DNA of 32,000 nucleotides from Nostoc punctiforme PCC 73102 (GTDB taxonomy: Bacteria > Cyanobacteriota > Cyanobacteriia > Cyanobacteriales > Nostocaceae). The stretch lies in contig NC_010632.1 of the NCBI RefSeq assembly GCF_000020025.1, positions 150,001 through 182,000 on the forward strand, in the 5' to 3' direction. Shown piece by piece: positions 5,119-28,690 of this stretch (the first letter of the stretch is position 1; each line of letters starts with the position of its first letter). The notes under the pieces were generated by a model. That model was not told the origin of the DNA and searched no databases. It saw only the letters and a program-made list of their open reading frames with translations. The position numbers and the translations under genes were made by a program.

Positions 5119-5919
5119 ATGCAAATTATCATGTATCTGACAAAAGTTTTTTATAAAGTGGGTGATATTCCTATATTTAATCCTCTTTATATCCATGCTT
5201 ACATTATTCATCAATGGCTATTAAACTTTAGAAGCCAGCCTTTGTCAGTTAATCAAAAATCAGCAATAATATTCCCCCCCCATCAAGATGATGAGACTTT
5301 AGGTTGTGGTGGTTTAATTGCTCTTAAACGTGAAATGGGAATCCCGATTAAAGTTATTTTTTTGACCGATGGGCAAAAATCGCATACAGCAATCCCCTGG
5401 GTTCAACCACTAGAAAATCTTATTCAAGTTCGTAAACAAGAAGCAACAACAGCTTTACATATTTTAGGGGTAGAAGTATCAGATATTCACTTTTTTGACT
5501 TAATAGATGGCACTCTAAACCATCTAAGTAATGAGCAATATCAAAATACTATTAAGCATCTTGTTGAGCTTATACAAACTTTTAACCCAGGGGAAATTTA
5601 TGTTCCCCATCGAAAAGATAATCATCCAGACCACGAATGTACTTATAAATTCGTTAAAGCCGCAGTTGAACAATCACAAATAGAATTGGAAATACTGTAA
5701 TATCCCATTTGGATATTTTGGTTATCGCCATTATTTATCAAATTAAGATTTTCTGATTTAACTGGTGCTTATCGATTATGTATTAACTCTGTTTTAGAAC
5801 AAAAAAAGCGAGCAATTACAGTTTATAAATCTCAAACTACAATTCTTCCACCTCGGTTTCTCAAAAGTTTTTTGCTGAATCATCACGAAATTTTCTTTAA
5901 AGCTCAACCGAAAATATAA
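5119..5919 (+). pseudogene. PIG-L/LmbE-family deacetylase interrupted by an in-frame TAA at 5698-5700
   Basis: PHQDDETLGCGG (the family AHPDDE-type metal motif) and HPDHE are in the 193-aa ORF. The same frame continues after the TAA for 72 more codons (YPIWIFW...KKRAITVYKSQ...EIFF) to TAA 5917-5919, matching the usual C-terminal part of the family. Confidence 0.65.
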
Positions 5920-6695: not shown

Positions 6696-7816
6696 TAGCA
6701 ATCCTATCTGGGTTGTGAGAAAATACGTAAGAGGATTAAAGGTATAATTATTAGCCATTGTAGGGGAATATCAATGTGGATGCGATCGCTATCAGAGTTT
6801 ATCGAAAATAGCCAAGATAAGCGAGAAATTCAACGGGCACTCGCAGTCAAGATGCTGCTAGAAGGATACACTCATGTTGCTATCCAATCGATATTAGATG
6901 TTTCATCAGGATTTATAAGTAAGTGGAAAAAGGCATTTTTCACTTTTGGAGTAGAAGGCTTAAAGCTTAGATACAAGGGAAGTCAGGGATTTTTGAATCC
7001 ACAACAGCGCTATTGTGTAATTGAATGGCTCAAAACCAAAGAGAAGTGGAATTTGAGCGAACTAGAATACGAGATAGCATCTTCGTATGGGGTAGTGTTT
7101 GAGTCAAAACAGAGCTACTACGACTTATTTGATGCAGCTGGGATTAGTTGGAAGAAAACTCAAGCTCATAACCCCAAGTATGACGAAGAATTAGTAGCAT
7201 CAAAAAAAAAAGAAATCTGTGAGTTACTGGAAACGAGACGTTCTGAAATCGAGTCAGGAAAGTTAGTGGTATTCATGGTTGATGAATGTCATCTGTTGTG
7301 GGGTGATATCTGTGGATATGTTTGGGGAAAAACTAGCGAACGCATATCAGTTCCAGTTGTAAACGCTCGTGACAAGCAAACATATTTTGGTGCTATAGAC
7401 TACAAAACCCACGAATTTATAACTTACGCAGCTAAAAAAGGAGACTCCCAAAACATGATAAATTTCTTGGAATATCTTCAATCACAGCGTCCAGGAGCTA
7501 ATCTTTTAATAATTTGGGATGGAGCTTCTTATCATCGTTCCAATGCAATTCAAGACTATTTAGACTCTTTGAATCGTCAGCTTGAACAGGAACAATGGTT
7601 GATAACTTGTAAACGCTTTGCCCCAAATGCTCCACAACAAAATCCCGTAGAAGATATTTGGTTACAAGCGAAAAAATTGATTAGAGAGTTTTATTTTTTC
7701 TGTCATTCTTTTTCTGTAGTTAAAGCATTATTTGAGCTAGCCGTCAATGGTCAAATTTTTGACTTTCCTAAGCTGAATGAGTACGGTAATTTCTCACAAA
7801 TGATTTAGGATTGCTA
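6696..7816 (+). mobile_element. IS630-family insertion sequence (1121 bp) with TA target duplication
   Basis: Terminal inverted repeats TAGCAATCCTA...TGTGAGAAA (6696-) and the reverse complement at -7816. TA at 6694-6695 and 7817-7818. A single 344-aa transposase ORF lies inside. Confidence 0.88.
6774..7808 (+). CDS. IS630/Tc1-mariner-type DDE transposase
   Basis: N-terminal HTH region. DDE-type blocks VFMVDECHL, LIIWDGASYHRS, NPVEDIWLQAKK. Confidence 0.9.
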   Translation: MWMRSLSEFIENSQDKREIQRALAVKMLLEGYTHVAIQSILDVSSGFISKWKKAFFTFGVEGLKLRYKGSQGFLNPQQRYCVIEWLKTKEKWNLSELEYEIASSYGVVFESKQSYYDLFDAAGISWKKTQAHNPKYDEELVASKKKEICELLETRRSEIESGKLVVFMVDECHLLWGDICGYVWGKTSERISVPVVNARDKQTYFGAIDYKTHEFITYAAKKGDSQNMINFLEYLQSQRPGANLLIIWDGASYHRSNAIQDYLDSLNRQLEQEQWLITCKRFAPNAPQQNPVEDIWLQAKKLIREFYFFCHSFSVVKALFELAVNGQIFDFPKLNEYGNFSQMI

Positions 7817-8548
7817 TATATAGTCAGAAAGCATGACCTTGTAACCGACTTTGGCAGTTAGATAGCCAAGTTGAAAATCGTCTGCGAGATAATCGGCGAT
7901 CGCTTCAAATCCCCCGATTGCTTTTAGCACTTCTTGACGAATTACAATCGTTGAACCAAGTGCGAACTTCATACCCTCTAACTGTTTGCTGGTAATAGCA
8001 CCTGCGTGAAAATCACAAGCAGTCCCAACTGCTTCTAACTTTTCTACCCATCCCCGTGCTACGGAACGATATAAACAGGTGACAACACCAACATTCTTAT
8101 TATGTAACGGTTGAACAACTCGCTGCAAGTAGTCTTCCCCAACTCGGATATCGCTATCAGCAATAACTAGGATTTCGTATTTGGCGAAAGATAAAGCATT
8201 TGCCAGATTACTCACCTTTAGGTTTGTACCAATAATGCGATCGCAGATTATTAAATGAATATCCAGTTTCGGAAAGTCTCGGATAATTTGTTTGACCACA
8301 TCTATTCCAGGGTCTTGCGGGCTGCGGACGCTGAAGATAATCTGATAAGTTGAATATTCCTGTCGGCAAAATGTTGCCAAATTGTCGTAGATATCTCTGT
8401 CTAGTCCGCAAATTGGCTTCAGGATAGTAATGGGTGGATAAAAATTTGGAGCGTATATATGCGGAAAGAATTGGCTTTTTGAGAAGAAAAGACATTATTT
8501 TTGGATTATTCCAGAAAGTTTAAAAATCACAATTAGAAACCAGGACAG
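7817..8548 (-). pseudogene. Family-21-like glycosyltransferase, N-terminal fragment; also carries an in-frame TAA (8495-8497) and has no usable start
   Basis: The frame of ORF 7814-8380 reads upstream as ...LSWFLIVIFKLSGIIQK*CLFFSKSQFFPHIYAPNFYPPITILKPICGLDRDIYDNLATFCRQEY...VIADSDIRV. PPITILKP.CGLD and DSD are family hallmarks. The frame is closed by TGA at 8549-8551 with no ATG. Confidence 0.7.
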
Positions 8549-8587: not shown

Positions 8588-10903
8588 TTAAAACCTTTCG
8601 CCAATACCAAAATTGATGCGGTTGTCACCGTCGCCATTGATGCCGTAGTCAATGCGAATTGGCCCCAGTGGCGATTGTACGCGCACACCAAGACCATAAC
8701 CGTAGCCAGTACCGTTTTTGTTCAGCACCTCAGCTGATCTGGTACTACTTCCCAGATCGCTGCCGATATCAAAAAATAGTGCGCCACTGACGACTGAGAA
8801 AACTGGGAAGCGATACTCGGTAGATGCTTGTATATAACTACGTCCACTACCTAATCCTCCTTCTTGATAACCCCGGACGGAGTTACTACCACCAAGGGTA
8901 AAGGCTTCGTAAGGAGGCAAGTCACCAAGGATAGTTCCACCTTGCAAGTTAAATGCTAAAGTTTGTAGGCCTTTGGTAAGACTAATAAAGTTGACAGGGA
9001 AATATTGGCTATAGTTACCTCGTAACCTGGTGAGAAAAATATTGCCTAGTCCCACTGGTACTGACTGATCGACTCCGAAGCGGAGATAAGAACCGCTAGT
9101 CGGTTGTAAGGGGTTGTTACGGCGATCGCGTTGTACCCCTAGTTGCAACAGCAGCAAATCGTCTTCACCTTGTCCAGATGCACTAAGTGGAACTCGTTCT
9201 GTGGGTACTCCATTCTTGAACACCGTTCCTTCTTTTCTGATGTTGCCATTGGCATCACGGGTGGAAACTCGTTGATACTGCAAACCTGCTGAAGCCGTCC
9301 ATTCAGAATTTTTGTAGGAATTATTGCTCAGGGGACGAGTAAAGGTGACACCGCCACCTAGACGGAGGACACGGGGGCGATCGCCATCGGTCTTCCCCTG
9401 TTCAAAGGTTTTGATATTGTTATTTTTGCCATCAAAAATCAACGAAATGGAACTGCGGCGAAAAATATTGGCTGTATAGGAAGTCCGGTAGGGATCTCCG
9501 GCAATCCAGGGGTCGGTATATCGCAGGTCAAACAACAGTTCCCGTTCTCCCACCTGTATTTCTGTCCCCAGTTTTTGGTTCCTACCGTTCAGGTTTTGCT
9601 GTTGATAGCTAACTGTTCCAAAAAGTCCGCTAGCAGAACTAATCCCTGCCCCAGCCGCAATAGAACCACTACTGCGTTCAGCTACGTTCACTACTACATC
9701 CACTTTGCTGGGGTCGGTACCAGGGTCAAGGGAGACATTTACATCTTCAAACAGTCCCAGTCCATACACGCGCTGTAGGTCTTTTTGCACGGTGTTGCGA
9801 TTGAATATTTGTCCTGGCTTCAACTCCAATTCTCGGGTAATGATGTAAGCTTGTGTCCGTCCGCGAATTGGTTGTCCCTTTTCGTCTGTTTCTTGACCAT
9901 CTTTATTGCGGAACCGGACTCTAATATTCTCTACTACCCCTTCTGCTACTTGCAAGGTAACAACTCCGTTTTCAGAGACTTGGGGCGCTCCAATTACGTT
10001 GGCTAGCACGTAACCTTTGTCTTGATATCGTTTGTTTAACTGCTTGATGCTTTCTTGCAAGTCACGCAAGTTAAGGATTTTGCCATATTGCTCCCGAAAT
10101 ACTTCATCGACAGTATTAGCTGGTAATACGGAGGCGACACCAGTGCCAGGATTGGCTTGCACTTCTACTTTGCTAAGAACAGGGTTAGGCTGTACAACAA
10201 AGCTCACCCGCACTCCCAAGGGGGTATCTTCAGGCGATGCTTGGACGTTGGAGAAGAAGCCAGTACCAAAGATGGCGTTAATATCTTCTTGCAGTTGGCT
10301 GCGAGTTGTCGTTTGTCCTGGTTGGGTACGAATTACTCTGTAAACTTGGTTTTCTAGTTCTGGTGATAGTTGCCCTGTCTGAGATTTAACCACTACTTCC
10401 GACACCAGTACGCGGGGGTCATTGGCTTCTGGGGCTGTGTTGGGTTTAATATTTCTTGGAGTTGTGGGAGATACAGGTGTCGCCGCAGGTAGCTTGACAT
10501 TTTCCCCACCAGGAGTGGTGCTAGGAGACGGGGAAGGTGTTTGTTGTTGAGTGAGGTTTGGGTTTCTTTGAAGGGTTTGTGCCATTGTGGAGGTTGGCAC
10601 TACTACCTCTGGTGAAGCCAATGATGCTGAATTGACTGTTAAGGCTTTGACTGATTGAGACTTGAGATACTCCGAATTTGGAATACCTATTGTATTAGGG
10701 TGAAATTCTAGACCTTGACTGAAGTGACTTTGAGCAGTGCCTTTTTCTGCCTGCTGATTTGTTCCTAGTGTAAAAATCTTTGTTGTCTGTTTCAGACTAT
10801 TAGCAGTTTGTGCATTTGCACTCTCGCAGCTACCCAAAGGAGCTGCAATTGCCAGCACTGCCACCAATACCGGGGATAAACGCATTTTATTTACATTCCT
10901 CAT
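8588..10903 (-). CDS. bamA: Omp85/BamA-family outer membrane protein assembly factor (cyanobacterial type with Pro-rich N-terminus and POTRA repeats)
   Basis: Signal peptide MRNVNKMRLSPVLVAVLAIAAPLGS, Pro/Thr-rich spacer, POTRA-like repeats, C-terminal beta-barrel ending ...NFGIGERF. Start placed at ATG 10903 (alternative 10885), because the 32 upstream codons translate a GCGATCGC-containing repeat. Confidence 0.9.
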   Translation of the reverse strand: MRNVNKMRLSPVLVAVLAIAAPLGSCESANAQTANSLKQTTKIFTLGTNQQAEKGTAQSHFSQGLEFHPNTIGIPNSEYLKSQSVKALTVNSASLASPEVVVPTSTMAQTLQRNPNLTQQQTPSPSPSTTPGGENVKLPAATPVSPTTPRNIKPNTAPEANDPRVLVSEVVVKSQTGQLSPELENQVYRVIRTQPGQTTTRSQLQEDINAIFGTGFFSNVQASPEDTPLGVRVSFVVQPNPVLSKVEVQANPGTGVASVLPANTVDEVFREQYGKILNLRDLQESIKQLNKRYQDKGYVLANVIGAPQVSENGVVTLQVAEGVVENIRVRFRNKDGQETDEKGQPIRGRTQAYIITRELELKPGQIFNRNTVQKDLQRVYGLGLFEDVNVSLDPGTDPSKVDVVVNVAERSSGSIAAGAGISSASGLFGTVSYQQQNLNGRNQKLGTEIQVGERELLFDLRYTDPWIAGDPYRTSYTANIFRRSSISLIFDGKNNNIKTFEQGKTDGDRPRVLRLGGGVTFTRPLSNNSYKNSEWTASAGLQYQRVSTRDANGNIRKEGTVFKNGVPTERVPLSASGQGEDDLLLLQLGVQRDRRNNPLQPTSGSYLRFGVDQSVPVGLGNIFLTRLRGNYSQYFPVNFISLTKGLQTLAFNLQGGTILGDLPPYEAFTLGGSNSVRGYQEGGLGSGRSYIQASTEYRFPVFSVVSGALFFDIGSDLGSSTRSAEVLNKNGTGYGYGLGVRVQSPLGPIRIDYGINGDGDNRINFGIGERF

Positions 10904-11100
10904 AGTTACCACACGCAGTACTCCACAGGAGCCACAGGAGTTACTTAGCGATCGCCTCCGGCGGGGCGTAGCCCATCGCAAAATCATGCTCTTATGCAAA
11001 GCAACTGACCACTAAAGCCAAAAATACTGATGAAAACTATAGCTATAGCCGGATCAGTTGAAGGATTCATGTGTAAATTTATCTGAAATATCGGTTTCTG

Positions 11101-11136
11101 ATTATAAGCAGCAAAGGTCAAGAACTCGGAAAGATT
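11101..11136 (-). promoter_or_regulatory. Motif promoter a-left: AATCTTTCCGAGTTCTTGAC-N10-TATAAT
   Basis: Read on the minus strand. 20-nt motif at 11136-11117, -10 hexamer at 11106-11101. Points toward the small ORF 10984-11070 and bamA. Confidence 0.5.
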
Positions 11137-11211
11137 CATCTCAATAACTTGATATTTTCATGACCTTGTTAGTTACTGAGGCGAACGCGGCATATTTTTA
11201 AAATTGAAGCA

Positions 11212-11247
11212 AATCTTTCCGAGTTCTTGACTTTTATTCTCCATAAT
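11212..11247 (+). promoter_or_regulatory. Motif promoter a-right: AATCTTTCCGAGTTCTTGAC-N10-CATAAT
   Basis: Perfect 20-nt inverted copy of a-left, 75 nt away. -10-like hexamer at 11242-11247. Confidence 0.45.
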
Positions 11248-11606
11248 TCAATCCGAGAACCTTAGTCATACAGGTTGTTTAACTCTAATTAAAGGATTGA
11301 ATGCAATGAAAAATTATACAAAAATGATCCTAGCTGCTGTTACTATAGTTTTATATTAAAGTGCAGTTTTTAATATTACAAATAAAGGCAGAAGGCAGAG
11401 GGTAGAGGAAAAGAAGAATTAATAAAAACTTTAGTTTTGGGTCTAAAACCCAGTTTAAAAAAGGAATTGTATCGAGACGCGTAGCGTGAGATACAAAGAG
11501 TCATTATAGCTGCTTTCGTACTTCTGCCTTCTGAACTAAAATTTTAGTGTTTGACATTTGCAATCTTTGTAAAGTACAGCCAGAATTACAAATAATACTT
11601 TATTAG

Positions 11607-12473
11607 ATGATAAATCTTGCGGAAACTGCGTATCTAGTGGCAATGTATCGCGCATTGGAAAGCGAACGTGCAGATGCACTATTTAAAGACCCATTAGCGC
11701 GTGTGTTAGCTGGTGGAAAAGGTGAAATGTTTGTTGAAGTTATAGGGGAGAAAGACAAAATTACAAATGCGATCGCCATCCGCACCTATGTTATTGATAA
11801 CTTAATTTTACAGTTAGTTAAGTCAAAAAAGATTGACACTGTAATCAATCTGGCTGCGGGGTTAGATACTCGACCCTATCGATTACCTCTTTCTCTTTGT
11901 GCATCGCTTCGTTGGATTGAAGTTGACCTGCCGGAAATCATTGCTTACAAAGAACAATTACTTAAAGACCAGCAACCTTTGTGTTGGCTTGAGCGTGTCA
12001 AACTCGATATTACCAACCTGGCATTGAGAAAGACTTTTTTCTCAGAGATTAATCTTGTAGCAAGACAGGCTCTAGTGATCACAGAAGGGTTGCTATCATA
12101 TCTACACGAAACCCAAGTAGCATTACTTGCAACCGATATTTATGAGCAATCTCATCTGAATTGGTGGCTATTTGAATTGGAATCATCATTAGCGTTAAAG
12201 CACTATGATCAAGTTTACGCTCGAAAAATTTTCGACCAATATTTTGCGGATGGGAATAAAACCTTGTTATTTGCTCCAGAGCAAGGGGCAGAATTTTTTC
12301 AACACTATAATTGGAAAGTTGCAAAATCTGTATCTGCATGGAAAGAGTTACACCGACTAAACCGAGGGATCAAATTTGCCTGGTTACTAGAAATAATTAT
12401 GAAATTGGTTGCTAATGAATATTGGGAAAAAAATCAGCGGCAGGGTAGTATTGTATTGCTTGAGAAAAGTTGA
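11607..12473 (+). CDS. Class I SAM-dependent methyltransferase (leucine carboxyl / TIGR00027-like O-methyltransferase family)
   Basis: N-terminal AETAYLVAMYRALES...DPLA and the SAM-binding block VINLAAGLDTRPYRL typical of this family. 288 aa. Confidence 0.8.
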   Translation: MINLAETAYLVAMYRALESERADALFKDPLARVLAGGKGEMFVEVIGEKDKITNAIAIRTYVIDNLILQLVKSKKIDTVINLAAGLDTRPYRLPLSLCASLRWIEVDLPEIIAYKEQLLKDQQPLCWLERVKLDITNLALRKTFFSEINLVARQALVITEGLLSYLHETQVALLATDIYEQSHLNWWLFELESSLALKHYDQVYARKIFDQYFADGNKTLLFAPEQGAEFFQHYNWKVAKSVSAWKELHRLNRGIKFAWLLEIIMKLVANEYWEKNQRQGSIVLLEKS

Positions 12474-12530
12474 TATTTAAGATGATTATAAGGGCAGGTT
12501 AAAACTGTAATCGTTCGCCTATGAATAAAG

Positions 12531-12563
12531 GAGGTTGTTGAAACTAGAACATTCAACAACCTC
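12531..12563. terminator. Bidirectional hairpin between convergent genes
   Basis: Perfect 12-bp stem GAGGTTGTTGAA / TTCAACAACCTC with a 9-nt loop, followed by ATATTT. Lies between the stops at 12473 (+) and 12615 (-). Confidence 0.5.
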
Positions 12564-12614
12564 ATATTTAGTTATTTACAGCTACACATCAATTAAAACT
12601 AGTTAAAAATTACT

Positions 12615-13163
12615 CTACTTGTTATTTTCATTTGTTTCTTGTTCGTTATTACTCTGCGGAACTTGAATGCTACTCTTGGGACGAGAAGCTTCATTTTCGT
12701 TGTTTTCCTGGTTAGCATTCTCAGTGTAGAGAACCTTACCATTACCAGCGTCAATTTTTACCTCTTTCTGACTAATTTCTACAGCATAAACTAAGTTTCC
12801 ATCTTCATTTTCGAGTTTTACACTACTAGCTTTAGTACCGACAGAAGTTTCAGCAGCTTGTTGAGCTTGTTCTGCTGTGATTTTAGCTAAAGCTTGTAGT
12901 TTTTTGTCCTCTTGCTGTTCTTGTTGATCATCATTGGTTTCACCGTCACCGTCACTTGCTTGAGCTATTTTAGTGTGATGAACACCATTATTCATTACTT
13001 CAGGAGCTTCTATCGCGTCATTAGCTTCGCCATCTCCGTCACTAAATTTAGCTACTTGTATACTGTTTTGAGAAGGAGAGGCACTCACGGTTTTTACCAC
13101 TGCACTAACACCTAAAACACTCATTAAAGCAGCTGCTAAAGCGATTTTTGTCGAAGTTTTCAT
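12615..13163 (-). CDS. Secreted PepSY-domain protein
   Basis: Signal peptide MKTSTKIALAAALMSVLGVSAVV. Two SDGDGE(A/T)ND acidic repeats. C-terminal PepSY-like block ITAEQAQQAAETSVGTKASSVKLENEDGNLVYAVEI...IDAGNGKVLY. ATG 13163 has AGGA 9 nt upstream and is preferred over ATG 13232. Confidence 0.75.
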   Translation of the reverse strand: MKTSTKIALAAALMSVLGVSAVVKTVSASPSQNSIQVAKFSDGDGEANDAIEAPEVMNNGVHHTKIAQASDGDGETNDDQQEQQEDKKLQALAKITAEQAQQAAETSVGTKASSVKLENEDGNLVYAVEISQKEVKIDAGNGKVLYTENANQENNENEASRPKSSIQVPQSNNEQETNENNK

Positions 13164-13258
13164 GTGTGTAAATCCTGGAGATTTGTGTTTTTTGAGCAAT
13201 CTAAAATAGTTATCATTATTTGTGTAGTTCACACCTATTTTTGATTTGCTACAGTTTT

Positions 13259-13294
13259 ACTTTAAATATAAAAAGTCAAGAACTTGGAAAGATT
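13259..13294 (-). promoter_or_regulatory. Motif promoter b-left: AATCTTTCCAAGTTCTTGAC-N10-TAAAGT
   Basis: Read on the minus strand. Motif at 13294-13275, -10 at 13264-13259. Lies upstream of the PepSY gene. Confidence 0.5.
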
Positions 13295-13375
13295 GATTGA
13301 GACTATTAAAAATTATTTTGGTAACAGTATGCAAGTTGTAACAAAAGGATTGAAAAAGTTTTCTCTACTCAGTCA

Positions 13376-13411
13376 AAACTTTCCAAGTTCTTAACAAATG
13401 CAATCTACAGT
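13376..13411 (+). promoter_or_regulatory. Motif promoter b-right: AAACTTTCCAAGTTCTTAAC-N10-TACAGT
   Basis: Motif at 13376-13395, -10 at 13406-13411. About 35 nt upstream of ATG 13447. Confidence 0.5.
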
Positions 13412-13446
13412 AAAACTACAAATACAGATTGAGACATATAGGATTT

Positions 13447-13695
13447 ATGAATAACTCAACAAAAATCATTATTATCGGCTCTTTGCTTAGTACTTTGGGT
13501 ATCGCTGGTTTGGCAAAAGCTATCTCTACAAATCAACCCCAGTTACCTGTTGCAATCATGCCGCAGCATCACAGTAGCACTCAAATGATTATTAGTAAGG
13601 ATAAAGATGTGAAAATCGATGAAAACAGAGAACAGCCAGACGCAGCTTACGATGCTGATAGTGAGGTAAATCATGATAAAGTACCAACTTCTCTA
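13447..13695 (+). pseudogene. Secreted hypothetical protein, 5' fragment (gene split by IS630-family element)
   Basis: Signal peptide MNNSTKIIIIGSLLSTLGIAGLAKA. The reading frame runs into the IS end at 13696. The tail of the listed ORF (VVCQANFAML...) is IS sequence. Confidence 0.7.
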
Positions 13696-13717
13696 GTAGT
13701 CTGCCAAGCTAACTTTG

Positions 13718-14884
13718 CTATGTTAAATTTGGATATAAACGCTCCATTTTTCGGCGAGCATCTTTGGTTTGAAAACCCCAATAAACACTAGCTTTTTGCT
13801 GATTACGTTTTTTCTCCCAAGCGGCAATCTCAGAAGTTAATGTTTCTGCATTAGGAATACGCCGTTCTAAACATTGGCGAGATAAAACAGATAATTCGAT
13901 TTCTACCTGATTCAGCCCTTCGGGTTCGCCAGTTGCTTCAAGTCGGGGAACCCGCCCAACGCACTGGCTCACCAAGAAGCGTGTTTAGGAGTATAGTGAA
14001 ACTCTAACTTTTGAATAATTCGACGTGCTTCTTCTGGTGGAAAAACTTCATATAATGCATTGGGTGTATGAATATTCAAGTTATCAACTACTAAACGAAT
14101 AACATCGGCATCTCGGTAGGAAACATCTACTAAATTTTTCATTTGTTTAGCAAAATCGGCTTTAGTTCGACGTTCTGTAACTTCGATATGCCGCCATCCA
14201 GCCAAGGGTTGAAAACATGCGAATAAATTTACTGTCCCGTTACGTTTATACTCAAAATCATAACGTTCAGGTTGCTCTGGCTGTGGTGGCAAAGGAAGTC
14301 TTACTTCTTCTACTAATTGGTATGGACGTTCATCAAAGCAGACTACAGGGCGTTTAGGATCATAAGGCTCATTGTATAAATCCAGCACATCTTCCATTCG
14401 AAAACATATTCTGCGTTAACTTCAGGAATACACCATTGTTCTTTCAACCAAGGCTTAATTTCATTTTTTTTAAAGTTTGACGTACTGTTTCATCTGAGAT
14501 TGAATCTATGATACCAACGTTCACTAAATGATCTGCTAATAATTGCATTGTCCAACGCACTCTTCCTTCTGGCGGATTAGAACAAGCTGTTGCAATCAAA
14601 AATGCTTCTTGCTTTTCATCTAATTTTTTATGTTTTGGTGGATGAACTTCATCCTTTAAAGCAAAATCTAACCCTCCAATGACAAATTTTTCTCGTATTC
14701 GTTGCACTGTTGCAACATGCGCTCTAACTATGCTAGCGATCGCTTGATCCGTTTCTCCTTCGGAAGCCATCAAAAGAATGTTTGCACGGCTTATGGTTCT
14801 TGCCTTATGCTTACCTTTCTTAATTATCGATTGCAGTTGGGAAACTTCATCTTCATTCAAGTCAACAATGTACTTTTTTGCCAT
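13718..14884 (-). pseudogene. IS630-family transposase: orfA/orfB joined at an A8 slippery run, C-terminal part displaced by a 56-nt insertion
   Basis: Three ORFs (14444-14884, 13969-14397, 13718-13975). The junction ...TLKK/NEIKPWLKEQWCIP lies at the A8 run (14464-14471). DDE blocks [24 protein letters not shown]. ...[10 protein letters not shown] and LNQVEIELS are separated by 56 extra nt (not a multiple of 3). Confidence 0.8.
13916..13971. repeat. 56-nt hairpin-forming mini-insertion inside the transposase gene
   Basis: CCCTTCGGGTTCGCCAGTTGCTTCAAGTCGGGGAACCCGCCCAACGCACTGGCTCA. Contains GGGTTCGCC ... GGGGAACCC arms. Removing it restores ...HASW|LNQVEIE... Confidence 0.6.
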
Positions 14885-14955
14885 GTTACACCCCGTTTTT
14901 GGCTATTTTACCAATTAGAGGTTTTACTTAGCAAAGTTACCTTGGTACACTACTA

Positions 14956-15507
14956 GGCCAAGTGGGTGAATATGGTGAAAGCGTCTATGATATGGCTAAA
15001 GCCAATGATTGGACAAAAGCCACAGCTAATCTCACGTCGCTTCAAAATGCAGCAAAAAGTCTACGTACCGAAATCAAGGGTAAAAATAAAACAGAATTAG
15101 TACAGTTGGATGCCAAAATAGCAGCACTCAAGGGTGCTGTCACAGATAAAAATCGCATATCTGCAATGCGCGATGCTAACCAAGTGACGTTAATCTCTGC
15201 CAATATTACCAAGGAATTTGAACCAAAAGTACCAGTTGAGGTAACGCTACTTGACTACTATGGACGCGATCTGGAAATTTGGTCGATAACAGGAAATACA
15301 AGCCAACTGAAAACAACTGCGTCGGAGATGCGCCGCACCTGGAATGCAGTCAGACCATCTATCTTAGCGCGTGGAGGAACTACACAAGTACAGAAATTTG
15401 ATGGACTTGTTGCTAGTGTTGAGGCGGCAAAATTATCTAGAGATTACGCTCATCTTGCTACCCCTGTGCTAGATGAAGTGGATAATCTAGAAAAGGTCTT
15501 TAAATAA
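14956..15507 (+). pseudogene. Secreted hypothetical protein, 3' fragment
   Basis: Deleting 13696-14955 (1260 nt, a multiple of 3) fuses ...DKVPTSL to GQVGEYGESVYDMAKANDW... in frame. The helical protein has no family I recognise. Confidence 0.7.
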
Positions 15508-15515
15508 TCAATACC

Positions 15516-15551
15516 TTTGCCAAAATAAGAGCCTATAAAAATTTTGGCAAA
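15516..15551. terminator. Hairpin just after the stop at 15507
   Basis: 11-bp arms TTTGCCAAAAT / ATTTTGGCAAA with a 14-nt loop. No clear U-tract on the plus strand. Confidence 0.3.
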
Positions 15552-15901
15552 AACGGCAAAATGACTCATATATAAGCGTTTAGCTTACAAGATAGATTGG
15601 AGGCTCAAACCCTTTGTACTACGGGCAATACGTTAAAAAATGCTTGCGGGAAACCTTGAAGGAATTTTTAGAGCTTATTGTTTTTGCCAGACCTTTGAGA
15701 ACAGGACGTTAATACATCAATTCAGCCTCGTAAATTGGCGAAGGTATTGAATAATAATACTCTTTTCTGGGTGTTGTTTGTCTAAGTCCCACTAATGATA
15801 TTTCACTGCTTTACAGAGCTAATGTTATAACTTTTGATTGAGTCTGGAACAGCATAGTATTTTTACCGTGTAAAGTTTTTAGTTACATCACACATCCTAT
15901 A

Positions 15902-15937
15902 AAACTTTCCAACTTCTTAACATTTGTTGTTTAGAGT
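15902..15937 (+). promoter_or_regulatory. Motif promoter c: AAACTTTCCAACTTCTTAAC-N10-TAGAGT
   Basis: Single copy. -10 at 15932-15937. About 70 nt upstream of ATG 16007. Confidence 0.5.
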
Positions 15938-16006
15938 CAAACAAGACCAAACTACTACGATGAAAACTTCATCATTACTCTAAAAAAATCAGGCAGGACA
16001 AATATC

Positions 16007-16762
16007 ATGAAAAAAGTTTTAAACAGGGCTCCAGAGGTTACAAGTACCTTCTGGATTATTAAGGTTCTGGCAACCACGGTAGGTGAAACTGCGGCTGATT
16101 ATTTGTCAGTAACTCTGAACCTCGGTTTAAGCGTTACATCCTATATTATGAGTGGCTTGTTACTCATTGCGCTTTGGAATCAGTTTAGGCTAAAACGATA
16201 TGTCCCGGTGAGTTACTGGATTGTAGTCGTTTTTACAAGTATCACTGGCACGCTGATTACTGATAGATTGGTAGACGAGCTCGGAGTTAGTTTGATAACA
16301 ACTACTATAGTTTTTAGTGTGGTCTTGCTAGTAGTTTTTGCGCTTTGGTATTTAAAAGAAAAGACATTAGCTATGCACTCCATCAACACAGCTAAAAGAG
16401 AGCTTTTCTACTGGGTGGCTATTTTATTTACGTTTGCTTTGGGGACGGCAACGGGGGACTTACTAGCAGAGGCTTTGAAGCTAGGTTATGCCCAATCAGC
16501 ACTAATATTTAGTGTTTTAATTGCGATAGTAGCTGGTGGTTATTATTACTTTAGAATAAATGCAGTCTTGGCATTTTGGATAGCATATATCTTGACTCGT
16601 CCGCTTGGCGCATCTGTAGGTGATTTACTATCTCAACCTGCTAAAAATGGTGGCTTGGGTTTAGGTACGGTCGAAACTAGTATGCTTTTTCTTTCTATAA
16701 TCATAAGTCTGGTTATTTACTTAAGCCTTAAGCAGAAGCAACCAGCGCCTACTGCCGATTGA
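16007..16762 (+). CDS. Polytopic membrane protein with four internal repeats (DUF347/COG4705-like)
   Basis: 251 aa. Repeated TM-pair units each carry a G-x-T/S-x-x-D signature (TVGETAADYL, ITGTLITDRL, GTATGDLLAE, LGASVGDLLS). AGGA lies 8 nt upstream of the ATG. Confidence 0.6.
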   Translation: MKKVLNRAPEVTSTFWIIKVLATTVGETAADYLSVTLNLGLSVTSYIMSGLLLIALWNQFRLKRYVPVSYWIVVVFTSITGTLITDRLVDELGVSLITTTIVFSVVLLVVFALWYLKEKTLAMHSINTAKRELFYWVAILFTFALGTATGDLLAEALKLGYAQSALIFSVLIAIVAGGYYYFRINAVLAFWIAYILTRPLGASVGDLLSQPAKNGGLGLGTVETSMLFLSIIISLVIYLSLKQKQPAPTAD

Positions 16763-16778
16763 CCGAAAAGATTGATTA

Positions 16779-16874
16779 ATGATAGCGACGATTTGCCATG
16801 TTACTCAACAGTGGGATGCTGATTTGATTATTTTAGGTCAGTGTAACCACTGTGCGATCGCAAAAAATAACTGA
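16779..16874 (+). pseudogene. Possible relic of a universal-stress-protein C-terminus
   Basis: The 31-codon ORF MIATICHVTQQWDADLIILGQCNHCAIAKNN resembles the ...A.....ADLIVLG... segment of USP-family proteins. There is no N-terminal part. Confidence 0.25.
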
Positions 16875-16890
16875 TTTTTTGATTCAAAAT

Positions 16891-16926
16891 TGTCTTTTCA
16901 ATTTCTTGACTATTGTTCTGTAAGCT
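16891..16926 (+). promoter_or_regulatory. Motif promoter d (most divergent): TGTCTTTTCAATTTCTTGAC-N10-TAAGCT
   Basis: 14 of 20 positions match the a-copy, with the same N10 spacing to a TAnnnT hexamer (16921-16926). 30 nt upstream of ATG 16957. Confidence 0.4.
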
Positions 16927-16956: not shown

Positions 16957-17676
16957 ATGATCCGAAAAATTTCTACCTTTTGGTTACGCCATATATACCC
17001 TCGTCTAGCTCCTTTAATTGCCACAATTGGTGTGGTTGGACTTACTGTTTGTCTGCTGATCCTGTTTGTTGTTGCCAAGCTTGCTGAAGAAGTTTTAGAG
17101 AAAGAAGCTTTTGCATTTGATACATCTTTCTTATTATGGATACATCAATTTGCCAATCCGAGTCTTGATAAATTAATGTTATTTATAACAAATCTTGGTA
17201 ATCCTAAGACAGTAATAGTAGTCGCAGGAGTGACTTTAGGAATACTTTGGTGGCGACGTTACCGAGTAGAAATATACATTTTTGTGCTTACTTGTTTAGG
17301 AGGGTTAATCCTAAATACAGGTTTAAAGTTATTTTTTTCAAAACCTCGTCCGCAACTTTGGACACTTTTGATCTCTGAAAAGTCTTTCAGTTTTCCTAGC
17401 GGTCATGCACTAGGTTCTATGGTAATGTATGGTTTTATTGCCTATATGCTAGCTACTCATTATTCTCAATTTTCGCGGTTCATCTATGTTTTAGCGGTTA
17501 TTTTAATAGCGGTAATTGGGATTAGTCGGCTATATTTAGGTGTCCATTGGCCTACAGATGTAATTGCTGGGTATAGTGTTGGATTTTTGTGGTTAATGAT
17601 ATGCATCGTGATACTAAAGCTACAGAGATTGAGGCAAGGAAAATTACTAGGTAAAACATTCGATAACGTTCGTTAA
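16957..17676 (+). CDS. PAP2-family membrane phosphatase (undecaprenyl-diphosphate / lipid phosphate phosphatase type)
   Basis: The three PAP2 motifs are present: KLFFSKPRP, PSGH, SRLYLGVHWPTD. Six hydrophobic segments. Confidence 0.85.
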   Translation: MIRKISTFWLRHIYPRLAPLIATIGVVGLTVCLLILFVVAKLAEEVLEKEAFAFDTSFLLWIHQFANPSLDKLMLFITNLGNPKTVIVVAGVTLGILWWRRYRVEIYIFVLTCLGGLILNTGLKLFFSKPRPQLWTLLISEKSFSFPSGHALGSMVMYGFIAYMLATHYSQFSRFIYVLAVILIAVIGISRLYLGVHWPTDVIAGYSVGFLWLMICIVILKLQRLRQGKLLGKTFDNVR

Positions 17677-19456: not shown

Positions 19457-19648
19457 TCACTGTTCATCCCGCAACCACTCTAACCCAGTTGTCAACGCTG
19501 CCTCCGCCGTGTAATAAATCTTTTTTTCCCCGAATATCCCACCCGTGCGGCTGATGATACGGAATTCCCAGCAATGCCCTGGCGTGTAAAAAACCATTAG
19601 GATACTGCTGTTGACACAGAGTACCGTGTAAACTTTAACTTGGGACAT
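19457..19648 (-). CDS. Hypothetical 63-aa protein
   Basis: Its ATG overlaps the upstream ORF's stop (TAATG at 19646-19650). No family recognised. Confidence 0.4.
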   Translation of the reverse strand: MSQVKVYTVLCVNSSILMVFYTPGHCWEFRIISRTGGIFGEKKIYYTAEAALTTGLEWLRDEQ

Positions 19649-19857
19649 TAGCCAAAGCGCAGTATGGTTGCAAGTCTCCCCTTGAACCTACTGTTAGAAT
19701 CGTAATCTTCAGTTTTCGGCTTGGTGCTATAGGTAGACTTTGACTCAAATGCTTTTTCAAAAATGAAAACTCCAGTATCCAAAAATTGTACTAATTTCCT
19801 GTACCTATCTATCAAGACACTACAATTAAGACAAAGAACTTCATCAACCTTAAACAA
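19648..19857 (-). CDS. Hypothetical small protein (about 69 aa, start uncertain)
   Basis: ORF immediately downstream of the response-regulator gene. TTG start in the track. The in-frame upstream codons add KCH, giving C-x10-C-x2-C. Confidence 0.3.
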   Translation of the reverse strand: MFKVDEVLCLNCSVLIDRYRKLVQFLDTGVFIFEKAFESKSTYSTKPKTEDYDSNSRFKGRLATILRFG

Positions 19858-19879: not shown

Positions 19880-20646
19880 TTAATGCTCTAGTTGAGGAAT
19901 TCGTTGAAAAAAGTAACCACTTCCTCTTGCAGTGAGTATATATTCTGGATTTTCCAGATCATCTTCTAACTTCGAGCGCAAACGTGAGATATGCACATCC
20001 ACCACACGAGTATCTGCATGTTGTTCTGCACTATAACCCCATACTTGCTGCAATATTTCTCCACGGGTAAAAGATTTGCCGGGATAGCTCATCAATAACT
20101 CTAGTAAGCTGTACTCTACACCCGTTAATGTAATCCGCTCACCTGCTTTGTAGACTTGTCGCTTATTGGTATCAATTTTAAGATTGTCTACAACCATTAC
20201 TCCCAAATTAGAAATAGCAGTAGTTGCTGTATCGTTTCTTCGTCGCAGCAACGAGCGAATTCTTGACTCTAATTCCTTGGGAGTATTGGTTTCGCCATAT
20301 AGTCATCAGCCCCTAATTCCAGCCCAGTGATTCGATCTGCTACATCTCCCAAGGCTGTAAGCATGATAATTGGCACATCTGATTGTTTCCGTAATTCTTG
20401 ACAGACACCGTAACCATCCAGCTTTGGCATCATCACATCCAGAACGATTAAGTCGGGAGTTTCTTTACGAAAGGCTGACAAAGCTTCTTCACCATCACTA
20501 GCTGTCACTACGCTGTAGCCAATCATTTCTAACCGCATCTGTAAAATCCGGCGGATGCTGGCTTCGTCATCTACTACTAAGATTGTGCCTTTATCACTTG
20601 ATAAGTTTCTTAATGCTGTTCCTCCACAGCGAGAACTCTCAACCAT
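19880..20646 (-). pseudogene. RpaB-like OmpR-family response regulator split by a 1-nt frameshift
   Basis: The receiver ORF (ILVVDDEASIRRIL...VMMPKLDGYGVCQELRKQSDVPIIMLTALGDVADRITGLELGADDYMAKP) ends in ILPRN*. The next frame continues TPKELESRIRSLLRRR... into the winged-helix ORF (RVVDVHISRLRSKLE...ILTARGSGYFFQ). The shift must lie within 20272-20298. Confidence 0.75.
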
Positions 20647-20796: not shown

Positions 20797-21621
20797 TTAC
20801 ATAAATGCAGATTTTAGGGTAAATGCAAAAATAAATGCTTGTAGTTTCAGTAAAAACCCTTCATATGTCACTGCATGAATTGATTTTGGAAAGATGCAAG
20901 TGATACAACTAAACACTGTTTCAATATAATGCCTTGTATATTGCTTAACATACTGATTCCACGGTTGATCTTGACGCTTGGAATTCTTTTTCCGCATGAC
21001 TTTGAGAGATATTTGGCTTGATTGTGCCATATCATCCTCTACGGTATAATCAGTATAGGCTGCATCTGCGTATACTTCACTACCAGGCGGTAAGTTGAAT
21101 GGTAACGCATTTAATCCACGCACATCGTTTGCACTACCAGGTAAAAAGGCAAATTCTACAGGAATTCCGCTTTTGGTACTGATTAACTGGACTCTGACTC
21201 CGTAGAAATAGCGTTTTTTCGATGCGATGTAACCTCTGTATTCTTCTGACTGTATCAAGTGAACTTGAAAAATACGGATATTGTCACAAATGGTCACGGG
21301 AAATGAGTCTAAAAGATACTCCGTTGAATCACTTATTTCTTTAATTATCATTCCTATTTGATGAAATAAGTCGTTGAGCAACATTGATAAATTGTGTAAT
21401 CGCAGATTGAATCGTGATTTTTCTAACATATTTGGTATTAATTTATGGTCTTTCATATAGGCGCAAGCCTTGCTATGATTACCATTGAAGAACATAGCGG
21501 CAACAAGTGCCGTTGTAATAATTTCTGCATCAATCATGTCCCGACGAATGTCGTCGTCATGCCCAATCGCCTTGAGTAAGTCATCAGTGATAGCATAGAT
21601 CGTAATTATTTCGTTTAGCAT
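20797..21621 (-). CDS. IS982-family transposase (element ends not resolved, roughly 20780-21745)
   Basis: LDSFPVTICDNIRI, GYIASKKRYFYGVRVQLI, PVEFAFLPGSANDVRG, YADAAY, RKKNSKR are blocks typical of IS982 transposases. Start placed at MLNEIITIY (ATG 21621). I could find only weak terminal inverted repeats. Confidence 0.7.
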   Translation of the reverse strand: MLNEIITIYAITDDLLKAIGHDDDIRRDMIDAEIITTALVAAMFFNGNHSKACAYMKDHKLIPNMLEKSRFNLRLHNLSMLLNDLFHQIGMIIKEISDSTEYLLDSFPVTICDNIRIFQVHLIQSEEYRGYIASKKRYFYGVRVQLISTKSGIPVEFAFLPGSANDVRGLNALPFNLPPGSEVYADAAYTDYTVEDDMAQSSQISLKVMRKKNSKRQDQPWNQYVKQYTRHYIETVFSCITCIFPKSIHAVTYEGFLLKLQAFIFAFTLKSAFM

Positions 21622-21970
21622 CTGTCCCTCCTCTTTTGACTCTGGGGGGAATTTTATGGCTTTTTTGACCCCGTTGCGATCGCCTGAATCTGTAACTAGC
21701 AACTTGGGTTATTATCTGCTTATTAGGAGTCAAAACTGCAAAACAGTATTGACATACAGTCATGAGGAAAGAAGCGATCGCTTAATACTTGCATCTGTGC
21801 AACAGATTATGCTGGGGCATCTGCACGAAAACAGATTTGTACACAATTAATAAATTCCTCGACAAGGGACTCGTATTTTCCATAAATTTGGTGTACCTTG
21901 TTAATTTCGTGCAAATTATTTACACCCGACTGACCCCGACTTTCTAGAAATCTACTGTCATCCAAATTTT

Positions 21971-22668: not shown

Positions 22669-23682
22669 GTGAATAACCCTGAACTAAATAATTTACCTCC
22701 GATTAAACTCATTCCTCTGAACGCTGAAACAGCATTGCTGACTGGGCGCACGGCTAGTACAAGACCACCAACCGATATCCGGTGGGTAAAGGTGCTAGAG
22801 TTTTTACGCAGCAACAATCTCGCACCAAACAGCCGCAAGCTTTACGAACGTGAACTGAAGCGATTTTTGGCTTGGAGTGAGCTGCACTATCATGAACTGC
22901 GTCCACGTCATCTTGCGCTATATAAAGAATATCTCCGTGATGAAATACGGACTGATGCAGGTAATCCCCTTTCAAAAAGCAGCATTAATGCGGGAATTGC
23001 GGCACTCAAAAGCTTTTTCAAATGGATGTCTTACACATATCCTGAAATTATTGCTACTAATCCCACACTGGGGATTAAACTGGAAAAAGTGCCACTGCCA
23101 CCAGCCCAGAGTTTAACCCCAGAAGAGATGGAACGGGTTTGGTCAGCGTTGGAATTGCTCCAAGAGACAAAGCAACGGGATACAGCACTGGTTCACATTC
23201 TCAGTCATGGACTCCGGGCTGGGGAAGTTGTGCAGCTAAATGTTGGCTCATTTGATGGCAAGCTACTATTTTTACCAGACACCAAAACCAATGAACCACG
23301 CTTAGTGCCACTGCGAAAGGAGAGTCGGGAAGTTTTAGCAGAGTATTTGCAATTGCGCTCACAGCAAGGAGAGGTTTTAAACAGCGACTCTCCATTGATG
23401 ATTTCACACCATGCTTCATACAAAGGTGAACGCTTGAGTTATCACGGCATTTACTTTGCTGTAGAAAATATCGGTGAACTTGCTCAAATTGAGGATTTGC
23501 ACCCTCACTCCTTTCGCCACACCTATGCCACTGACTTATTGCTATTGGGAGTTGACCCCAGCCATGCCCGTAAGCTAACGGGACATCAAAGCGAGAAGGC
23601 GTTTCGGCGCTATACCCTTCGCAGCGAACAAGAAGCGGCGATCGCTGCTTACTATCGTGCAATCGGTGAAGAAGCAGAGTAG
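22669..23682 (+). CDS. Tyrosine site-specific recombinase (XerC/XerD-like phage-integrase family)
   Basis: N-terminal SAM-like domain (LYERELKRFLAW). Catalytic residues in LSHGLRAGEV (R), HSFRHTYAT (H-x-x-R), GHQSEKAFRRY (H...Y). GTG start. Confidence 0.88.
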   Translation: MNNPELNNLPPIKLIPLNAETALLTGRTASTRPPTDIRWVKVLEFLRSNNLAPNSRKLYERELKRFLAWSELHYHELRPRHLALYKEYLRDEIRTDAGNPLSKSSINAGIAALKSFFKWMSYTYPEIIATNPTLGIKLEKVPLPPAQSLTPEEMERVWSALELLQETKQRDTALVHILSHGLRAGEVVQLNVGSFDGKLLFLPDTKTNEPRLVPLRKESREVLAEYLQLRSQQGEVLNSDSPLMISHHASYKGERLSYHGIYFAVENIGELAQIEDLHPHSFRHTYATDLLLLGVDPSHARKLTGHQSEKAFRRYTLRSEQEAAIAAYYRAIGEEAE

Positions 23683-28332: not shown

Positions 28333-28690
28333 CTCAGATGAGGATGAATAAACAATTGTGCATCACTTATCTCTAAAGAGATATTTCATAGGTTGACTCT
28401 TCCCATGATAATAAAAAAATTGTTGGTAATATGCATTAAAATTCTTTTGGATGTCTTAGTCTAATTGTGTCATTTTTTATCTTTTAATCTATTAAAAAAT
28501 ATTAAGTTATAAATAATTATTATCTTTAATCACAATCAAATTTAAAGTCAGTAACTTATCTTGCTATTTACTTGTAAATATGCAAATCTTTTTTTATAGC
28601 TTTAATGATAAAGTTATAACTTTTACTTAAAGTTAACTTAATTTTTCAGTTCTCTAAAGCTAAACTTGGTCTATAGTTTTTCAAAATTTG

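Follow-up and report, generated by a model that had tools for sequence, protein, structure and literature searches.

A bipartite promoter box in Nostoc punctiforme, the predicted -35-replacing activator site of an RppA-like two-component system, marks a candidate envelope and metal-stress regulon

In the pho box, tandem direct half-sites lie about 11 bp apart and end 10 bp upstream of the -10 element. The cyanobacterial Pho-box unit is PyTTAAPyPy(T/A), the PmrA box is CTTAAT-N5-CTTAAT, the BqsR box is TTAAG-N6-TTAAG, with PepSY genes adjoining bqsRS, and HLR1, the element of RpaB, consists of two (G/T)TTACA(T/A)(T/A) units separated by a 2-nt gap. Here we describe a bipartite box that occurs six times in a 32-kb stretch of Nostoc punctiforme PCC 73102 DNA (hereafter the window, numbered from its first nucleotide). 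Judging from its geometry, conservation and genetic linkage, the box is probably the -35-replacing activator site of an RppA-like two-component system whose regulon serves envelope and metal stress. As a kind of element, response-regulator boxes that mark out regulons are well known; the box, the regulator clade and the regulon described here appear to be undescribed.

Genes like those behind the box have been reported together elsewhere. The mmf cluster of Tn6048 in Cupriavidus metallidurans, which is induced by Zn and Pb, comprises mmfA (PepSY), mmfB (PAP2), mmfC1/C2 (DUF347), mmfD and mmfRS (PMC4914505, PMC12029693). UppP-DUF347 operons are lead-induced in Frankia (PMC4531530), and the PepSY protein UipA binds U and Fe (PMC8963506). 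The OmpR-type system UzcRS of Caulobacter, which responds to U, Zn and Cu, has an 18-bp motif positioned for activation and mainly activates genes for secreted and membrane proteins (PMC8963506).

The core of the element, the 17-mer CTTTYCRANTTCTTRAC, matches the window six times without a mismatch, with starts at 11117 (-), 11215 (+), 13275 (-), 13379 (+), 15905 (+) and 16894 (+) (Table 1). In 100 dinucleotide shuffles the core was matched 0.26 times on average, and at most twice, with up to 2 mismatches allowed; tolerating 3 mismatches in the window itself added a single match, which is intragenic and unrelated. The initial annotation had listed six intergenic, gene-facing copies of a 20-nt motif, each 10 nt upstream of a -10-like hexamer. 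Direct reading of the region and the core pattern search agree with it on coordinates and strands, and the 10-nt spacing (N10) from core to hexamer is exact at all six copies. The half-site starts are separated by 11 bp in every box. All six sites lie outside credible genes and each faces a gene, the sole overlap being with a spurious 51-aa open reading frame (ORF) at site 1. From hexamer to first credible start codon the distances for sites 1 to 6 are 101, 359, 95, 35, 69 and 30 nt. Sites 1 and 2 stand back to back, as do sites 3 and 4. The non-TA hexamer of site 2 is a recent change: N. punctiforme NIES-2108, whose locus is 95% identical, carries TACAAT at the equivalent place.

The anatomy of the box was derived from 127 non-identical sites in other genomes. 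Ahead of the core, at positions that the search pattern left free, A, A and T are conserved in 82, 101 and 114 of the 127 sites, respectively. The N position of the core is G in 109 sites, the TTT that follows the core is kept in 104, 120 and 95 sites, and the third-from-last base of the hexamer is A in 81, while the flanks on either side of the box carry approximately 0 bits. The resulting consensus is AAT-CTTTCC-RAG-TT-CTTGAC-nTTT-N6-TAnAnT with a box of 24 nt; the bipartite element that had been noticed is thus present, but its conserved extent exceeds the 20 nt first assigned to it. TCTTnnC half-sites occupy positions 0-6 and 11-17 across the 127 sites, so that the 11-bp phasing seen in the window also holds elsewhere. 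In the divergent PepSY/DUF347 spacer of Brasilonema one strand reads CTTGAC-N5-CTTGAC-N10-TATAGT and the opposite strand CTTGAC-N5-CTGAAC-N10-TACCGT. This perfect repeat shows the repeat unit to be a hexamer at 11-bp phasing.

The spacing between box and hexamer is as strict as the box itself. TANNNT stands at exact N10 in 101 of 104 perfect sites, a count for which the scan pattern required TANNNT. At unselected one-mismatch cores in the same loci, TANNNT was found at exact N10 in 21 of 24, and at any other offset from 7 to 13 in no more than 2 of those 24. A search with the sigma-70 consensus, which called for both hexamers at a spacing of 16-18 nt, picked up none of the six promoters, and the hexamers are therefore without a -35 partner. 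The same search gave 15 matches in the region against a shuffle mean of 17.1, and its terminator counts were likewise not above those of shuffles. The TTGAC contained in the box is 9-10 bp from the hexamer and is too close to serve as a -35. The elements accordingly combine the features of class II activator sites: direct half-sites 11 bp apart, a fixed position that overlaps the -35 region, and no canonical -35.

A scan for the core, N10 and TANNNT in one genome per species (GTDB) returned at least 80 loci. About 68 of these are cyanobacterial and come from several orders; they span Nostocales, Phormidesmis/Leptolyngbyales, Microcoleus, Chamaesiphon, Chroococcidiopsis, Elainella, Thermoleptolyngbya and others. 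Among the matches listed, approximately 10 loci are lone matches in unrelated phyla, which is the number expected by chance. At least 19 loci hold 2-5 strict sites inside 8 kb. The spacing of divergent pairs ranges from 6 to 221 bp among the loci listed and, because it varies in this way, each pair represents two independent promoters and not one palindromic unit. Two loci (L038 and L053) come from a metagenome-assembled genome labelled Tatlockia sp. MGR_bin123 (Legionellales) and carry the cyanobacterial module with four boxes, a regulator of 78% identity and a PAP2 protein of 66% identity; these contigs are probably misbinned cyanobacterial DNA.

The sites are conserved in front of orthologous genes. 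The PepSY promoter is an identical 36 nt in Tolypothrix PCC 7601 and A. cylindrica PCC 7122. The DUF347 promoter reads CTTTCCaagttCTTGAC-N10-TACGAT in PCC 7120 (plasmid pCC7120beta), A. cylindrica and Scytonema NIES-4073, and the PAP2 promoter reads CTTTTCaagttCTTGAC-N10-TAAGCT in PCC 7120 (pCC7120beta), Scytonema and Tolypothrix, the last of which has no PAP2 gene annotated downstream. The site 1 promoter also precedes a 96% identical Omp85 gene in NIES-2108 and in Nostoc P1574. Intact orthologues of the secreted protein, 261-265 aa long, are encoded behind sites in four loci (L022, L039, L054, L060), and LCM genes stand behind sites in three (L050, L068, L142). Conservation upstream of orthologues, on which the initial annotation had made its proposal depend, was thus found across distant cyanobacteria. 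Relatives of the module, among them those of PCC 7120, A. cylindrica, Tolypothrix and Scytonema, are carried on Nostocales plasmids, within heavy-metal-resistance islands that also encode CzcA/CusA, P-type ATPases, SmtB/ArsR, DUF305 and sigB. Homologues of the DUF347 protein occur on plasmids in other phyla, at an identity of about 55-60%.

Of the 112 scan sites listed, 99 are followed by an ORF of at least 50 aa that begins within 350 nt, many of them 17-100 nt past the hexamer, and 25 of these 99 ORFs are without a family assignment. The commonest downstream family is DUF347 (22 of the 112 sites), followed by PepSY (13), the YpjB-like secreted protein (6), PAP2 (5) and Omp85 (3). BacA/UppP, GT21, signal peptidase I, LCM methyltransferase, SbtA-like proteins and the response regulator itself each account for 2. 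Families met with once are LptF/G, an ArnT-like PMT enzyme, an acyltransferase, DUF2127, a group-2 sigma factor, an OprB porin, a peptidoglycan-binding protein and a squalene-synthase-like protein. The predicted targets are a set of envelope and lipid-carrier genes, in line with the envelope regulon that had been put forward as a candidate from the window.

Two further features of these genes deserve mention. A group-2 (SigB-like) sigma gene lies behind a box on an Aliinostoc chromosome (L141 13665 +) and in A. cylindrica UHCC 0172 (L097 1324 +). The metal-resistance islands on the plasmids of PCC 7120, A. cylindrica PCC 7122, Tolypothrix and Scytonema include a sigB gene as well, which together hints at a regulator-to-sigma cascade. 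DUF347 genes outside cyanobacteria also accompany envelope-lipid genes. On the Enterobacter asburiae plasmid pECLA (L017, 5502-8741) DUF347 adjoins mcr-10.1, a colistin-resistance gene for a lipid A phosphoethanolamine transferase, and on a Deinococcus aquaticus plasmid (L018, 1482-9466) it lies beside UppP, DedA, PIG-L and a PAP2-regulator-kinase operon. PIG-L is company shared by the Deinococcus DUF347 locus and the window (5119-5700).

A candidate regulator emerged from the same loci. A. cylindrica has, one after another, a site, DUF347, the regulator (the clade includes A. cylindrica WP_015364271) and the kinase, with DUF2127 and PepSY on the opposite strand behind a site of their own; Brasilonema shows the same arrangement and a second regulator-kinase pair after PAP2. 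When the A. cylindrica regulator was compared with all loci by tblastn, an orthologous clade of 68-97% identity was separated from paralogues of at most 57%. This clade occurs within 8 kb of the motif in at least 18 of about 70 cyanobacterial loci that had been picked by the DNA motif alone, whereas we estimate that a single-copy gene would fall in approximately 0.1% of 8-kb windows by chance; it is also present in the Brasilonema and A. cylindrica plasmid loci. The clade is apparently autoregulated, with a same-strand site upstream in 11 of 21 regulator loci. The site is 79-122 nt before the regulator in 4 of these and about 0.9-1.3 kb before it in 7, a gap that fits one intervening gene, which is DUF347 where identified (A. 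cylindrica, L082, L033).

The linkage also holds in the reverse direction. Four loci were fetched by the regulator protein only (Oscillatoria nigro-viridis PCC 7112, an Aliinostoc chromosome and two metagenomic contigs), and in all four there are sites of 0-1 mismatch that have TANNNT at N10. Behind them lie the regulator, DUF347, PepSY, LCM, a sigma-70 gene, a peptidoglycan-binding protein with DUF2127, and a YdjC-EamA-GT21-regulator-kinase operon. The best NCBIfam matches of the pair are RppA/RppB (NrsR/NrsS; NF041734 and NF041735). Since the scores remain below the equivalog cut-offs (231.5 and 232 against 250 bits for the regulator, 285 and 287 against 400 for the kinase), the pair forms a paralogous clade distinct from RppA/RppB. 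No specific name for the regulator clade was given in the sources searched. By eye, the kinase has two membrane segments around a loop of about 120 residues, which suggests that it may sense the periplasm. A linked and apparently autoregulated regulator is thus found across other loci, and not inside the window.

The proposal that the sites are OmpR/PhoB-type class II activator sites draws support from the fixed N10, the missing -35, the conservation and the linked regulator clade, and it is the explanation we favour. Each element would be an activator-dependent promoter of the sigma-70 type in which the box fills the place of the -35. A phosphorylated dimer of the OmpR/PhoB family would bind both half-sites head to tail and, in the manner of PhoB at pho boxes, use sigma region 4 to recruit RNA polymerase. 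The regulator would belong to the cyanobacterial RppA/RppB-like clade, acting with a membrane histidine kinase and boxed at its own operon elsewhere. Its regulon would comprise DUF347, PepSY, PAP2, UppP, the secreted protein, the Omp85 paralogue, GT21 and the LCM methyltransferase, to which other genomes would add LptF/G, signal peptidase, an ArnT-like enzyme and a group-2 sigma factor. From gene context and the literature, the signal may be divalent metal in the periplasm, or else damage to the envelope. Because the window lacks the regulator pair, its six promoters would have to be controlled in trans, provided that the regulator is encoded elsewhere in the genome.

Set beside the described systems, the predicted promoters resemble those of E. 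coli PhoB, with which they share half-site phasing, the 10 bp between box and -10, the lack of a functional -35 and an apparently autoregulated regulator-kinase operon. They differ from the E. coli pho box in their half-sites (TCTTTCC and TCTTGAC here, CTGTCAT there), and from the PhoB system in that the regulator is of another clade, the regulon concerns envelope and metal rather than phosphate, and binding and the sigma contact are predictions. The PmrA (BasR) and BqsR boxes are similar in being direct repeats of hexamers with 5-6 nt between them and a CTTAA-like core, and PmrAB, like the system proposed here, places envelope and lipid-carrier remodelling genes under a metal-sensing kinase. 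The linked regulator, however, scores 183-192 bits against a PmrA cut-off of 330 and is no orthologue, the target families are different, and the first half-site is CTTTCC. Among curated families the closest for both regulator and kinase is Synechocystis RppA/RppB (NrsR/NrsS), a nickel-sensing system that is likewise cyanobacterial and metal-linked, but the targets here are not nrsBACD. The literature searched contained no usable description of an NrsR binding site and no account of a system such as this in cyanobacteria. RpaB HLR1 is comparable as two direct repeats under an OmpR-family regulator in cyanobacterial promoters, although its sequence is unlike the box. The UzcRS motif of Caulobacter is CATTAC-N6-TTAA, placed at -43 or -53 and not abutting the -10, and its phylum and targets are other ones.

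In gene content the module resembles mmf (L016), which combines PepSY, PAP2, DUF347, a secreted protein and an OmpR-type regulator-kinase pair on mobile metal-resistance DNA. PepSY, PAP2 and DUF347 are present in the window itself, whereas the regulator-kinase pair adjoins them in other cyanobacteria. The best match of the window's DUF347 protein, 55.0% identical, is on a Rhodoferax plasmid that carries the Tn6048 mmf cluster. On the other hand, the PAP2 proteins are 27% identical, the cyanobacterial regulator is 37% identical to MmfR, and the secreted protein is not homologous to MmfD. Whereas mmf is one operon, the cyanobacterial genes have many separate promoters and belong to a larger regulon (Omp85, GT21, LCM, UppP, LptFG). 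The box is absent upstream of mmfA in Tn6048, where GTCAT-type repeats are found instead. The likeness to mmf is one of module content; it is partial and is not demonstrated orthology.

Several other explanations of the six sites have to be weighed. The box overlaps the core promoter region, and OmpR-family regulators are able to repress from such positions, so it could be an operator at which the regulator occludes RNA polymerase. We consider this unlikely: the promoters are without a -35 at 16-18 nt, two-component systems commonly activate their own operons, which agrees with a box in front of the regulator's operon, and the distance from box to -10 is invariant in both perfect and unselected sites, as would be expected of an activator that touches polymerase and not of a repressor. 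It is more improbable still that the block is the recognition element of an alternative sigma factor (SigB-like group-2 or extracytoplasmic function, ECF) without any response regulator, even though sigB travels in the same islands, two genomes have a site in front of a sigma-70 gene and TTGAC occurs inside the box. That TTGAC is 9-10 bp from TAnAnT, compared with the 16-18 bp spacing of the sigma-70 family, the -10 is an ordinary TAnnnT rather than an ECF-type CGTC, a 24-nt block with an internal 11-bp repeat goes far beyond the length of a -35, and the physical linkage is to a regulator-kinase pair. The window does hold one OmpR-family gene, an RpaB-like regulator at 19880-20646 (-), 3 kb from site 6, which might bind the box as a variant HLR1. 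This gene carries a one-base frameshift near 20255-20275 that yields KPILPRN and a stop instead of KPFSPKELESRIRSLLRRR, and it is either a pseudogene or a sequencing error. Nostoc sp. CALU 1950 has an intact 'RpaB' of 96% identity to it. No orthologue of the window's gene occurs in any of the at least 80 motif loci, where the best match is 44% identical. The window's gene is 71-76% identical to the genuine RpaB of Gloeobacter and Thermosynechococcus and presumably keeps the RpaB recognition helix, and it would therefore be expected to bind HLR1, which is unlike the box. The box matches the HLR1 consensus at 5 of 8 positions in the first unit and poorly in the second, and the remark in the initial annotation that the motif is not HLR1 is correct. 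We regard this reading as very improbable and, with no linkage to the motif elsewhere, excluded the RpaB-like regulator as the binder.

A role as Pho boxes of SphR/PhoB, at which the initial annotation had hinted, is suggested by the like geometry, with 11-bp phasing and 10 bp to the -10, and by the resemblance of the CTTAAC/CTTGAC half-site to PyTTAAPyPy. CTTTCC, the first half-site, is no match for the Pho-box unit. No Pho-regulon family (pst, phoA, phoX etc.) is among the identified downstream families, the unassigned quarter of ORFs (25 of 99) aside. At 181 bits the linked regulator falls short of the TIGR02154 PhoB cut-off of 296, and its best match is RppA. On these grounds we abandoned the hint, and give this explanation hardly any weight. 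The chance that the 20-mer belongs to a miniature inverted-repeat transposable element (MITE) or another dispersed mobile repeat is smaller again and close to nil. Inverted pairs at two loci, and a window that is rich in insertion sequences (IS) and holds a real MITE-like insertion at about 11380-11535, would agree with such an origin. Similarity between copies, however, stops after about 42 nt (box, N10, -10 and a few bases), the spacers of the divergent pairs are unrelated, as first noted, and also vary in length across genomes, and no copies lie inside window genes. The sites instead keep a fixed short distance to a few orthologous families from Nostocales to Leptolyngbyales and Microcoleus. 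The possibility that the motif is a MITE terminal repeat, raised at the outset as something that would overturn the proposal, was thus examined and not borne out. An Rfam search of the region returned only sub-threshold matches to a plant microRNA family, MIR7993, on both strands at 11110-11237 (31 bits against a gathering score of 100); they are an artefact of the inverted pair formed by sites 1 and 2.

Some observations weigh against an activator site of an RppA-like system. The two half-sites, CTTTCC and CTTGAC, are consistently unlike and make the box less symmetric than classic tandem repeats, and the positive sign of regulation is read from geometry alone. Counts from the scan that required TANNNT apply to the matches listed and are not genome-wide frequencies. 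A second, paralogous regulator clade (Brasilonema QDL19020 is a member), 55% identical to the first, also accompanies canonical sites, in L012, L032 and L033, so that the assignment of the binder to one of the two clades, or to both, is not unique, and the candidate pair is not encoded in the 32-kb window. A literature search with the motif string gave unrelated matches only, and the literature searched contained no mention of all7623-all7626, the tags we guessed for the PCC 7120 genes.

Table 1. Coordinates of the box-promoters, their targets and neighbouring features in the window.
Feature	Position	Strand	Description
Site 1	11101..11136	-	Box AATCTTTCCGAGTTCTTGAC 11136-11117, N10, TATAAT 11106-11101; faces Omp85/BamA paralogue
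Site 2	11212..11247	+	Box, N10, CATAAT; faces LCM-type methyltransferase
Site 3	13259..13294	-	Box, N10, TAAAGT; faces PepSY gene
Site 4	13376..13411	+	Box with CTTAAC second half-site, N10, TACAGT; faces secreted YpjB-like protein gene
Site 5	15902..15937	+	Box, N10, TAGAGT; faces DUF347 gene
Site 6	16891..16926	+	Box with CTTTTC first half-site, N10, TAAGCT; faces PAP2 phosphatase gene
Seventh-site relic	8461..8472	-	AATTCTTTCCGC, the first half-site alone
Omp85/BamA-family paralogue	8588..10999	-	Pfam Omp85 and POTRA, NCBIfam; first credible gene behind site 1
LCM-type S-adenosylmethionine (SAM) methyltransferase	11607..12473	+	Target of site 2
PepSY-domain secreted or anchored protein	12615..13163	-	ATG at 13163; target of site 3
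Secreted-protein gene, weak YpjB-like match	13447..15507	+	IS-interrupted; target of site 4
IS630-type insertion	13693..14956	-	35-nt terminal inverted repeats; transposase split into ORFs 13969-14397 and 14444-14884
DUF347 membrane protein	16007..16762	+	Four repeats; target of site 5
PAP2-family phosphatase, undecaprenyl-diphosphatase-like	16957..17676	+	Target of site 6
RND efflux genes	19-5112		
PIG-L deacetylase	5119-5700		
IS630-like element	6774-7808		
GT21 glycosyltransferase remnant	7814..8495	-	5' end lost to deletion, 3' end cut by IS630-like element

The window's copy of the module consists of targets without their regulator pair, and several parts of it are decayed (the secreted protein, GT21 and the LCM leader). 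No histidine kinase and no intact OmpR-family regulator was found among the genes of the 32-kb window. The first products downstream had been described as all carrying a signal peptide or transmembrane segment. At sites 1 and 2, two tiny hydrophobic ORFs had been counted, and these are kept only in a 95% identical relative, at a differing length, and are absent in distant loci. We did not accept them as genes because of this poor conservation and length change, and the first credible genes are those of the Omp85/BamA paralogue and the LCM-type methyltransferase. The bamA gene placed further downstream of the first copy is indeed represented by a paralogue, but as the first credible gene, 101 nt past the hexamer. 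Similarly, the secreted-protein gene predicted behind site 4 is present but split by the IS630-type insertion.

Between site 2 and the LCM gene lies the 156-nt MITE-like insertion, with terminal inverted repeats GCAGAAGGCAGA and TCTGCCTTCTG, which is absent from the otherwise collinear NIES-2108 locus; the site 2 leader is 203 nt without it, compared with 359 nt as found. The relic of a seventh site was recognized by comparison with the intact site and GT21 gene of NIES-2108 (L050, 1594, minus strand). Relative to that locus, the window has suffered a deletion that took away the second half-site together with the -10, the leader and some 65 codons at the N-terminal end of GT21.

Downstream of the PAP2 gene are AHSA1 and ArsR genes, the frameshifted RpaB-like regulator, transposases and an integrase. 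An IS4-type transposase gene (20797-21702) is directly upstream of the RpaB-like gene, and short ORFs with glycosyltransferase-like fragments, e.g. ILTVGSRGDLQPYCALA, are found downstream of it at 19457-19857 (-); these resemble what is left of an MGT-family gene after decay. Further downstream, at 22669-23682 and 28688-31216, a tyrosine integrase and a TPS-domain (two-partner secretion) protein are encoded. These two, the many IS elements and the plasmid-borne relatives suggest that the window is a plasmid or genomic island.

Together, the analysis turns six look-alike sequences into a testable regulon with a 24-nt box, a strict geometry, a candidate regulator-kinase pair and a list of targets. 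The targets include proteins of poorly known function (DUF347, PepSY, YpjB-like, LCM) beside enzymes of the undecaprenyl-phosphate cycle and of outer-membrane biogenesis, and a shared box explains why these genes travel together on Nostocales plasmids in metal-resistance islands. The mmf cluster is strongly metal-induced, and its function has been unexplained for more than a decade. Cyanobacterial envelope-stress signalling is poorly mapped, and we tentatively raise the possibility, which we hold with much less confidence than the activator site itself, of a widespread and hitherto undescribed cyanobacterial response to envelope stress and metals in which an RppA-like system switches on DUF347, PepSY and PAP2/UppP machinery, a functional module that would be the one seen again in Cupriavidus (mmf), Frankia, Deinococcus and plasmids of enterobacteria. 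If this is true, DUF347 and the phosphatase would constitute a new system, shared across phyla, with the lipid carrier or periplasmic phosphate as its point of action and with possible roles in metal precipitation or undecaprenyl phosphate recycling, and the box would be a ready-made reporter for finding the signal. In filamentous cyanobacteria the box can also serve as a compact inducible promoter and reporter.

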